From: Candidatus Nomurabacteria bacterium
GTDB lineage: Bacteria; Patescibacteriota; Minisyncoccia; Phycocordibacterales; UBA9973
Assembly (NCBI GenBank): GCA_026396015.1
Contig: JAPLXP010000004.1
Location: 1,546-65,545 of the forward strand
Reading direction: 5' to 3'
DNA: 64,000 nt
Part shown: positions 36,291-36,510 of the stretch, piece after piece
Layout: each line of letters starts with the position of its first letter
How positions within the stretch are numbered: position 1 is the stretch's first letter
Notes under the pieces: generated by a model
Told to the model about the DNA's origin: nothing
What the model saw: the letters and a program-made list of their open reading frames with translations, nothing else
Databases searched by the model: none
Position numbers and translations under genes: made by a program

Positions 36291-36372
36291 GCCTGGGTGG
36301 CGGAATTGGTAGACGCGCACGACTCAAAATCGTGTCTCGAAAGGGGTGGGAGTTCGATTCTCCCCCTAGGCA
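36291..36372 (+). tRNA. tRNA-Leu (CAA), type II
   Basis: GCCTGGG..anticodon loop CTCAAAA..long variable arm..GGGAG TTCGATT CTCCC CCTAGGC A. Confidence 0.85.
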
Positions 36373-36374
36373 CA

Positions 36375-36405
36375 AAAAAATTAATGGCTTCGGCCATTTT
36401 TTTTG
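36375..36405 (+). terminator. Rho-independent terminator
   Basis: ATGGCTTCGGCCAT followed by T8. Confidence 0.7.
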
Positions 36406-36415
36406 TGATTAGAAC

Positions 36416-36510
36416 GAGTGAACTGCTTCACTCGCGCGGGAGAATCGAAAGACTTTTCGCTATTCATTTTAATGAATCGAAAAGTACCAGCCGATTCTCC
36501 CCCTGGGCAC
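36416..36510 (+). other. tRNA-Leu echo structured element
   Basis: GAGTGAA-CUGC-UUCACUC hairpin. It also has GGGAGAATCGAA, antisense to the T-arm, and a CTTTTCG...CGAAAAG hairpin. It ends with CCGATTCTCCCCCTGGGCAC, an echo of the tRNA-Leu 3' end. Confidence 0.5.

Follow-up and report, generated by a model that had tools for sequence, protein, structure and literature searches.

The 3' ends of tRNA and tmRNA genes are classical targets of integrating elements. An account by Williams from 2002 (Nucleic Acids Res) is said to describe islands and prophages with tyrosine integrases, which integrate at these 3' ends and include a subclass with crossover in the T-loop. Integron attC sites are also known to form arrays with no integrase close by (CALINs). 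In this analysis, an element located behind the tRNA-Leu(CAA) gene was studied in a 64,000-nt stretch (hereafter, the window) of contig JAPLXP010000004.1 of Candidatus Nomurabacteria bacterium. The element carries an antisense and a sense copy of the 3' part of the tRNA which it follows, and it was recognized as a member of family F1, i.e., the CTGC-loop family defined in this analysis and named the tRNA-echo family. The evidence is computational throughout and in large part drawn from metagenome-assembled genomes. The order of the parts is always described in the tRNA-sense orientation, and L-numbers (L118, L017, etc.) denote related loci in other genomes.

The tRNA-Leu(CAA) gene was predicted by ARAGORN at 36291-36372/3 on the plus strand, where all parts described below also lie, and matched Rfam RF00005 with 56.9 bits against a gathering score of 29. 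CCA is not encoded; the two bases next to the discriminator A (36372) are CA. The tRNA genes of the window and of the related loci generally do not encode CCA, and CA follows the discriminator in most of them, with an element or without. The 3' segment that is echoed (S, 36353-36374) comprises the T-loop, the 3' strands of the T-stem and acceptor stem, the discriminator and CA. Behind it, a terminator scan of both strands and folding located a hairpin region (hp, 36375-36404), composed of an A-run, a GC-rich stem-loop (36383-36398) and a T-run. The stem-loop together with TTTTTTGT was predicted as an intrinsic terminator, having both stem and T-run. The opposite strand was also scored as a terminator with the upstream A-run, and the hairpin is therefore predicted to be bidirectional. 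Its stem is prolonged into a palindrome with the tRNA trailer (CACAAAAAAA...TTTTTTTGTG).

The position of the antisense acceptor segment (AS-acc, 36405-36412) follows and is degenerate in the window Leu copy (GTGATTAG); in the L118 orthologue it reads GCCCAGG, complementary to CCTGGGC. The P2 hairpin (36414-36435) has 8 bp, with stems at 36415-36422 and 36427-36434 and the CTGC loop at 36423-36426. The antisense T segment (AS-T, GGGAGAATCGAA, 36438-36449) is the reverse complement of 36353-36364 at 12/12 positions, i.e., of the T-loop and the 3' strand of the T-stem of tRNA-Leu. Next is the core hairpin P4 (36453-36484), CTTTTCG...CGAAAAG, which would read CUUUUCG...CGAAAAG in RNA. The last part is the sense copy S' (CGATTCTCCCCCTGGGCACA, 36492-36511), 19/20 identical to positions 36355-36374 of the tRNA. 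It contains the 3' part of the T-loop, the 3' strands of the T-stem and acceptor stem, the discriminator and CA. S' retains a G of L118 and L119, at a place where the window tRNA now has A in a compensated T-A pair. The fold of the element covers about 110 bases and starts approximately 30-39 nt past the tRNA end, and the whole insert is approximately 140 nt without any open reading frame (ORF).

The chance expectation of a 12-mer in 64 kb on both strands is approximately 0.008. The Leu element is far beyond chance, because an independent covariance model (R1) matched it at 36402-36488 over its full length with 75.4 bits and E 5.6e-17. An earlier note on this DNA had named the hairpin with the CUGC loop, the antisense T-arm, the core hairpin and the sense 3' end, and all of them were found where it had placed them, in that order and on the plus strand. 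Its account of the layout needs correction in other respects, i.e., the Leu copy has no small P5 hairpin, which the L118 and L119 orthologues possess, its AS-acc is degenerate, and a fourth copy, of the Trp type, is not next to a tRNA.

Compared with the integrase islands, the locus shares the target at the 3' end of a tRNA or tmRNA gene, the replacement end, the displaced direct repeat (S and S', 19/20), the fixed orientation and accessory genes nearby. The modules differ in being only about 100-170 nt long, non-coding and without a nearby integrase. Their conserved core of covarying hairpins and their antisense version of the target are features for which classical att sites have no need. 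No recombinase was found in or next to the Leu insert. Unlike in a classical attR, the 5' strand of the T-stem is missing before S'.

To avoid circularity, neither the window nor any close relative contributed to model R1, whose 44 elements come from other genomes. The model covers AS-acc, P2 with the CTGC loop, GCGYG, AS-T, GAAAGA and P4, and the window was searched with filters off. Exactly four significant matches were obtained, each in the sense of the cognate tRNA, and the next best match had E 0.067. Besides the Leu copy, three copies were found on the minus strand. Trp-1 (R1 match 34637-34551, element 34637-34512; 75.3 bits, E 6.2e-17) adjoins tRNA-Trp at 34665-34736 (-). Trp-2 (R1 match 32741-32655, element 32741-32616; 73.5 bits, E 1.7e-16) is approximately 97% identical to Trp-1 and lies 1.9 kb further downstream with no adjacent tRNA; it was found by a short conserved pattern. 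A degenerate fragment resembling a tRNA 3' end stands ahead of Trp-2 at about 32792-32760 (AGTTCCAAC..ACCACACTACCCGCA), and the same degenerate fragment precedes the distal copies in L018 and L097. The Arg copy (R1 match 6587-6499, element 6587-6460; 59.9 bits, E 4e-13) belongs to tRNA-Arg(CCT) at 6622-6694 (-) and has the same layout plus the P5 hairpin.

Folded alone, each element gave z-scores of -5.5 to -7.8 against shuffled sequences. In the Arg and Trp elements, the parts stand in the same order relative to their own tRNAs as in Leu. It is also the order given in the earlier note, in which the Leu locus is on the opposite strand from the other two. An element is present behind 3/5 of the window tRNAs, and tRNA-Phe and tRNA-Ala had no R1 match.

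For the family search, one genome per GTDB species was scanned with a 36-nt pattern derived from three window elements. At least 117 loci were obtained, and all family-wide counts come from the matches listed there and the window. Some positions are fixed by the pattern in loci ascertained in this way. Among the matches listed, 72 also carry the P2 hairpin, nearly all in Patescibacteria. The record titles of the P2-bearing matches name Paceibacteria/Parcubacteria, Nomurabacteria, Saccharibacteria, Minisyncoccia, Azambacteria, Taylorbacteria, Vogelbacteria and Shapirobacteria. GC-rich pattern matches in other phyla were considered chance, as they have no P2 hairpin.

With a profile of the core, 89 strong copies were counted over the related loci and the window. 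For 59 of them, a same-strand tRNA or tmRNA lies upstream at a distance of at most 80 nt, and an adjoining opposite-strand tRNA was seen for none. Eight copies are at a locus edge, where the placement is undecidable, and six follow another copy. The other 16 stand behind a different element family, behind tmRNAs missed by ARAGORN, or on the far side of inserted genes. The partner tRNAs have at least ten specificities, among them Arg, Ser, Gly, Trp, Lys, Leu, Val, Tyr, Met and Thr. Genes for tmRNA (ssrA) also have elements downstream, as at L104 (1055-1599) and at L045, L100, L103 and L089. The antisense segments of L104 are complementary to the tRNA-like 3' end of the tmRNA (GTGGAGATG against CATCTCCAC). 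The window Leu element belongs to F1 by its R1 match, its same-strand position within 80 nt and its 12/12 AS-T complementarity.

A chance or low-complexity artefact was ruled out by the independent R1 (E 6e-17), the covariation and the 59-to-0 orientation. The earlier note's view of tRNA and element as one oriented unit is strongly supported by the cognate sense of 4/4 window copies and by the same ratio of 59 to 0. Further instances and conservation in relatives, which the earlier note had left to be looked for, exist in many Patescibacteria lineages, and the Leu element itself is kept in L118 and L119.

The consensus order is S, hp, AS-acc, 0-1 nt, P2, a GY linker of 2 nt, AS-T, GAAAGA, P4, UAC, P5, an optional P6 and S'. 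The module is non-coding and approximately 100-170 nt long across the family. AS-acc complements the 3' strand of the acceptor stem, the discriminator and the first bases of the trailer, and the 12-nt AS-T complements the 3' strand of the T-stem and the T-loop. The consensus P2 has a 9-bp stem and an invariant CTGC loop. In 65 distinct sequences, P2 was 99.7% paired and changes on both sides were found in 8/9 pairs; 0/500 shuffles reached the observed covariation score. P2 sits exactly between the complements of nucleotides 65 and 66. A duplex of the antisense segments (AS) with S or S' would therefore have the geometry of the acceptor/T-stem stack, with P2 at the place where the tRNA body exits. 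The consensus S' holds the 3' strands of the T-stem and acceptor stem, the discriminator and CA.

Complementarity was counted in 45 distinct tRNA-element pairs. AS-T is Watson-Crick complementary to the adjacent tRNA at 522/540 positions (97%), and AS-acc at 333/405. Where S and S' differ, AS matches the S of the tRNA itself 18 times and S' three times. S' is complete in only about one third of the copies and is often degraded while AS stays perfect. The flanking direct repeat has a 15-nt core and a variable extension into the T-loop. AS is perfect even where the tRNA's own stem is mismatched, i.e., in the T-stem of the window tRNA-Arg and the acceptor stem of tRNA-Gly in L017. The explanation of AS as a mere copy of the tRNA 5' strands was rejected, as the complementarity of AS takes in the T-loop, discriminator and trailer as well. 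Stem mismatches in the element-bearing tRNAs showed a weak trend (T-stem, 0.31 vs 0.12 per tRNA), which is not relied on. Between genomes, AS and S' track changes in the tRNA T-stem, e.g., CCTCC to CCTTC in L086 and L078. Compensatory changes between AS and S' were found once in L118/L119 and once in the window Trp copies.

The asymmetry between the two strands comes mainly from P4. In 66 distinct hairpins, P4 was more stable on the tRNA-sense strand in 46 and less stable in four, with 30 G.U pairs on the sense strand vs three on the antisense strand. P2 leans weakly to the same strand (G.U, 12 vs 5), and the energies of whole elements showed a small strand bias only. Because P4, and P2 likewise, favour it, selection probably sees a single tRNA-sense strand, as RNA or sense DNA. 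A functional RNA on the opposite strand is disfavoured by the P4 values. In the predicted fold of a tRNA-plus-element transcript, S would pair with AS through hp, and the 5' acceptor strand of the tRNA would pair with S'.

Occupancy was compared in relatives found by synteny and by homologues of the neighbouring alanine racemase, whose protein identity to the window is 94% in L118 and 87% in L119 and L120. The Leu element is conserved in L118 (81 bits) and L119 (80 bits), where P5 and a proper AS-acc are kept; both were lost in the window. It is followed by three ORFs in L118 and by a single ORFan in the window, and L119 has nothing there. In L120 and L014, a different tRNA-Leu(CAA) sequence lies in the opposite orientation without a 3' element. 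The tRNA-Trp gene is followed by an element in the window, L120 and L014, and by none in L119, where it abuts the next ORF, or in L118, where it is inverted. For tRNA-Arg(CCT), an element is present in the window, L062 and L098 and none in L017; L113 has one of another family there. At the two empty sites inspected (L119 tRNA-Trp and L017 tRNA-Arg), no clear terminator hairpin was found. The Trp elements of the window and L120 have the hp/AS/P2 half in common; from the antisense T-loop onwards, in the P4-P5 half, they are unrelated. The genes found behind the elements are accessory and hypervariable. Single tRNA genes were also seen flipped between close relatives with the flanking genes unchanged (L118 12259-12330, L120 9689-9771 and L014 about 815-898), in comparison with tRNA-Trp at 34665-34736 and tRNA-Leu at 36291-36373 of the window.

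Rearranged copies also occur in the family. Tandem exact repeats occur in L017 and L038, fused or truncated copies in L037, and repeat-flanked fragments in L105. Several occupied sites have a second, different terminator past S'. In L033, L036 and L039, the element directly abuts the tRNA and a terminator is present only past S'. At least two further core families, F2 (AGCCGGA..GAGGCGGGGTCG..UUUUCAGCAGAAAA..AUCUGUGAC) and F3 (CUUGAGUAUA..GGAGCGAAGCGAG), have an antisense T segment and then a sense 3' copy. They stand in series with F1, each with its own sense copy. Examples of F2 and F3 loci are L078 975-1075, L057 2375-2468, L113 1935-2010, L021 and L028, and L067 2230-2350 and L018 6290-6390. 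In tRNAs without F1, an antisense copy of at least 9 nt of the 3' end was present within 250 nt downstream in 15/51, compared with 9/108 in the upstream control. In L120 (9578-9660), a mirror-image element was seen upstream of tRNA-Leu(CAA), about 45 nt from the gene. Here the 5' end of the tRNA is echoed, first as a sense copy and then, past a CTGC-loop hairpin, as a 12-nt antisense copy.

It is given a little short of an even chance that the element is a small non-coding insertion module specific for tRNA 3' ends, which carries a replacement 3' end and a terminator and folds on the sense strand. The module would insert at the 3' end of a tRNA or tmRNA gene and bring a replacement copy S, and the tRNA would remain intact because the module supplies this end. 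It would also bring, usually, the terminator hairpin, and AS-acc, AS-T, P2 and P4, with P5/P6 in some copies. The displaced original 3' end would stay as the distal S', free to decay. The tRNA-sense core may then fold, with AS pairing either to S through the terminator hairpin or to S', the latter closing the P2/P4/P5 core. Either pairing would rebuild the cognate acceptor/T-stem duplex on one strand, with P2 branching at the acceptor/T-stem junction. The folded single strand, i.e., single-stranded DNA or possibly RNA, may imitate the double-stranded target and serve as a site of recombination, on the principle of integron attC sites and the attP hairpin of CTX phage. It would be exchanged with the tRNA gene by a recombinase whose own gene lies elsewhere in the genome, i.e., the module would move by site-specific recombination.

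The insertion module is suggested because the direct repeat, the tRNA/tmRNA targets and the fixed orientation are found together, and because hairpins are present with occupied sites and not at the two empty sites. Terminators past S', the turnover of occupancy, the arrays and half-swaps, and the decay of S' with the S-AS match kept argue in the same direction. So do the compensatory changes in P2 and the strand preference of P4, which show selection on structure, and the hypervariable genes downstream. Such an insertion module would be unprecedented in being so small, in having no enzyme linked to it, and in carrying an antisense version of its target and a covarying core that is deeply conserved.

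Several results weigh against the insertion module. Clustering of the ORFs around approximately 70 loci showed housekeeping families only, and no integrase, transposase, reverse transcriptase or nuclease recurs there. No integrase or recombinase was found among the 17 window ORFs scanned against Pfam, a set without the large ORFs at 46254-49701. The pattern was absent from 2.9 million viral contigs, and a phage attP site was rejected on this ground. No near-identical pair of cores at different tRNAs within one genome was found, and there is thus no direct evidence of recent movement. The flanks of empty and occupied sites are too diverged for insertion boundaries at the nucleotide level. The model gives no account of how the antisense and sense segments are retargeted to a new tRNA. 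With respect to the folding strand, the P5/P6 region has no strand asymmetry, and that of the S:AS duplex is only weak (24 G.U vs 15 A.C). In L033, paralogues within one genome differ by compensatory changes, which points to long-term selection, unusual for decaying selfish repeats.

The main rival, considered less probable, is a host-encoded structured tRNA-trailer RNA, produced by read-through of the terminator hairpin. Either S' or the cognate pre-tRNA, in its 3' half, would be the pairing partner of the antisense segments, and the result would be a tRNA-like acceptor/T minihelix with P2 as a side arm. Its roles may be 3'-end maturation, quality control, fail-safe termination, or that of a tRNA mimic or decoy. 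Identity with the neighbouring tRNA would be kept by selection on the pairing and by gene conversion. The strong covariation of P2, the loops and junctions conserved across deep lineages, and the better folding of the tRNA-sense strand, with its G.U pairs in P4 and weakly in P2 (12 vs 5), are consistent with such an RNA. So are the exact position of P2 between the complements of 65 and 66, at the exit of the tRNA body from the acceptor/T stack, the tracking of T-stem changes by AS and S' (L086, L078) and the compensatory AS:S' changes in L118/L119 and the window Trp copies. The elements that abut the tRNA with a terminator only past S' (L033, L036, L039) fit as well, the predicted fold of a tRNA-plus-element transcript is a coherent "expanded tRNA", and no mobility gene is linked to the elements. 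However, a canonical terminator with a T-run stands between the tRNA and the element at most loci, and there is no room for a separate promoter. The sporadic occupancy, i.e., 3/5 window tRNAs and orthologues in close relatives without an element, is unlike an integral maturation factor. With S' complete in about one third of the copies, the closing helix is often impossible within the element. The arrays, truncations and half-swaps resemble products of recombination. Pairing of AS with the 3' half of the tRNA also competes with the cloverleaf, and a benefit for the host is hard to see.

Among described RNAs, the 3'ETS-leuZ sponge of E. coli, YrlA and the viral tRNA-like structures are comparable in the 3'-trailer position and the predicted acceptor/T minihelix with a side arm. 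They lack sense and antisense copies of a tRNA and are not retargeted families. The readings are not fully exclusive, and a mobile module whose RNA also matters would fit all data.

A new class of mobile nucleic acid, autonomous-looking but gene-less, is considered improbable. This would be a rod- or dumbbell-shaped single strand of approximately 150 nt, as single-stranded DNA or RNA, whose duplex copies the acceptor/T-stem of a tRNA. Its antisense guides would target the matching tRNA or tmRNA gene by host enzymes only and would be re-templated on the target, by which the family could hop from one tRNA species to another, and the exact tandem repeats of L017 and L038 would be integrated multimers. 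A complement of the target carried by the element itself is also known from the bridge RNA of IS110/IS1111 and the exon-binding and intron-binding sequences (EBS-IBS) of group II introns. The primer-binding site of retroviruses is likewise complementary to the T-arm and acceptor 3' strand of a tRNA. Unlike these guide-bearing elements, the modules have no recombinase, reverse transcriptase or intron core, their complement extends into CA and the A-run and is split by P2, and their target is duplicated to an extent that those systems do not reach. At the Leu locus, the complement follows the genomic CA and A-run, not CCA, is split by P2 and has no reverse transcriptase nearby, which does not agree with a primer-binding site. 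No IS110-type recombinase was found by the four window copies or recurring in the related loci. A group I or T-loop intron was rejected, as no intron core is present and nothing is missing from the upstream tRNA; with this tRNA intact, splicing is not needed. A paper on tRNA introns of Patescibacteria concerns introns of the anticodon loop (PMC13011429).

Still less probable are attC-like sites of a gene-capture array, with the tRNA as attI, a cassette made of genes and one element, and most copies being empty cassettes. The reading is suggested by the two 97%-identical Trp-type elements, which flank a 1.9-kb segment with two genes in the window (32829-34461, minus strand), i.e., an ORF of 281 amino acids (aa) with a weak match to an ADP-ribosyltransferase (ART) domain, and a Ham1-family ITPase. 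Genes also lie between a tRNA-proximal and a distal copy in L018 (a cupin gene) and in L097 (an ORF of about 310 aa). The elements resemble attC and the attP(+) hairpin of CTX phage as imperfect palindromes (60-140 nt in those systems, approximately 100-130 nt here), folding on one strand into a bulged double-stranded site. As in CALINs, there are arrays, sometimes with genes between copies and possibly no integrase nearby, and the downstream regions are hypervariable and hold accessory genes. However, genes stand between two copies at only 3 of approximately 70 loci. The Leu element has no GTT trinucleotide in 36400-36516 and thus none of the R/L boxes (GTTRRRY) that form attC core sites. No integrase was found in the window ORFs tested, and no IntI-like gene or link to IntI/Xer emerged. 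Between L118 and the window, gene content differs at the element-distal end of the insert and not beside the element. Moreover, attC conserves structure only, whereas the core sequence is highly conserved here, and unlike in attC or CTX attP the duplex has the sequence of the neighbouring tRNA's own 3' end.

Inert scars, i.e., leftover arms of att sites from the classical integration and loss of larger islands with no present function, are the least probable: the direct repeats of tRNA 3' ends, the tRNA/tmRNA location, the accessory-gene islands nearby and the core-less partial duplicates at the window tRNA-Phe and tRNA-Ala would fit them, but they do not account for a 9-bp hairpin with 8/9 compensated pairs, for a CTGC loop that never varies, for an order of modules shared by Paceibacteria, Saccharibacteria and other lineages, or for a near-perfect antisense copy retained for each different tRNA.

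The partial duplicates, none with a structured core, were observed as follows. The window tRNA-Phe (copies at 5900-5912 and 6068-6086) has a 13-nt copy of its own 5' end, 54 nt upstream, and a 19-nt copy of its own 3' end, ending in ..AACCA, approximately 55 nt downstream. From its sequence, the upstream copy looks like a diverged tandem duplication that includes the promoter. At tRNA-Ala, an 18-nt copy of the 5' end (53844-53861) lies 73 nt upstream. Such upstream duplicates of 5' ends were present at 16/108 tRNAs of the related loci vs 1/108 in the control.

Short structured intergenic repeats such as REP/BIME and MITEs are also present in many copies per genome and often double as terminators. 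The modules differ in that each copy is matched to the neighbouring tRNA, always on its strand and always downstream. Terminal inverted repeats or short target duplications of fixed length were not seen in the modules.

No known RNA family was recognized. A scan of the window at gathering thresholds with Rfam 15, which covers T-boxes, group I/II introns, self-cleaving ribozymes, tmRNA and Y RNA-like RNAs among others, gave tRNAs only. Scans of the Leu and Trp-2 elements by E-value gave noise (best E 0.13, 18 bits vs a cut-off of 130 bits), and Rfam 15 had no match in the related loci, F2 and F3 included, beyond tRNAs and one tmRNA. Full-text literature searches found no description of these elements. 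The family is apparently undescribed, and its combination of features matches no described family under any of the surviving readings. The novel combination is a sense and antisense match for each tRNA, a shared covarying core, a phylum-wide spread and no coding capacity.

Genes neighbouring the Leu element are an alanine racemase, an ORFan and MurB. The ORF of 383 aa between tRNA-Trp and tRNA-Leu was considered as an integrase and rejected, as it is the alanine racemase. The ORFan downstream of the Leu element, an ORF of 271 aa (36667-37482, +), has two homologues among 5.8 billion proteins. The surroundings of the homologue with 61% identity are unrelated; a SIR2_2 gene and one with a weak HTH_17 domain match lie close by, and no tRNA does. 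Tracing of this ORF gave no clue to the mechanism, one of the two homologues being tRNA-free.

The region 28900-34500 of the window, from tRNA-Trp to the SIMPL and MiaA genes, is a hypervariable islet among the window, L118, L119 and L120. Its genes in the window are ART-like, Ham1, AAA_33-like, DUF4440, kinase-like and DUF3750. A subset is present in L118, a NADAR gene in L120 and almost nothing in L119. At 49759-51237, a gene resembling the coupling protein of type IV secretion (TrwB/TraG/VirD4, HerA-like domains) was found. A longer relative with the same domains (approximately 765-779 aa) lies upstream of the MurB-Alr region in L118-L120. The coupling-protein gene could be relevant if the transfer of single-stranded DNA matters for the elements.

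Patescibacteria (CPR bacteria) make up a major fraction of bacterial diversity and have tiny genomes. If the family is as it appears, a large share of their tRNA and tmRNA genes carry an individually matched structured element. The elements mark hotspots of accessory-gene turnover and cause assembly breaks and arrays in metagenome-assembled genomes, and the covariance model is ready for use in annotation. If the insertion module is true, DNA without any protein gene would home to tRNA genes in a new manner, by recognition of the target through an antisense copy, and nature would offer an example of a programmable site. If the trailer RNA that pairs with its own tRNA is true, it would be a new layer of tRNA biology in minimally regulated organisms.

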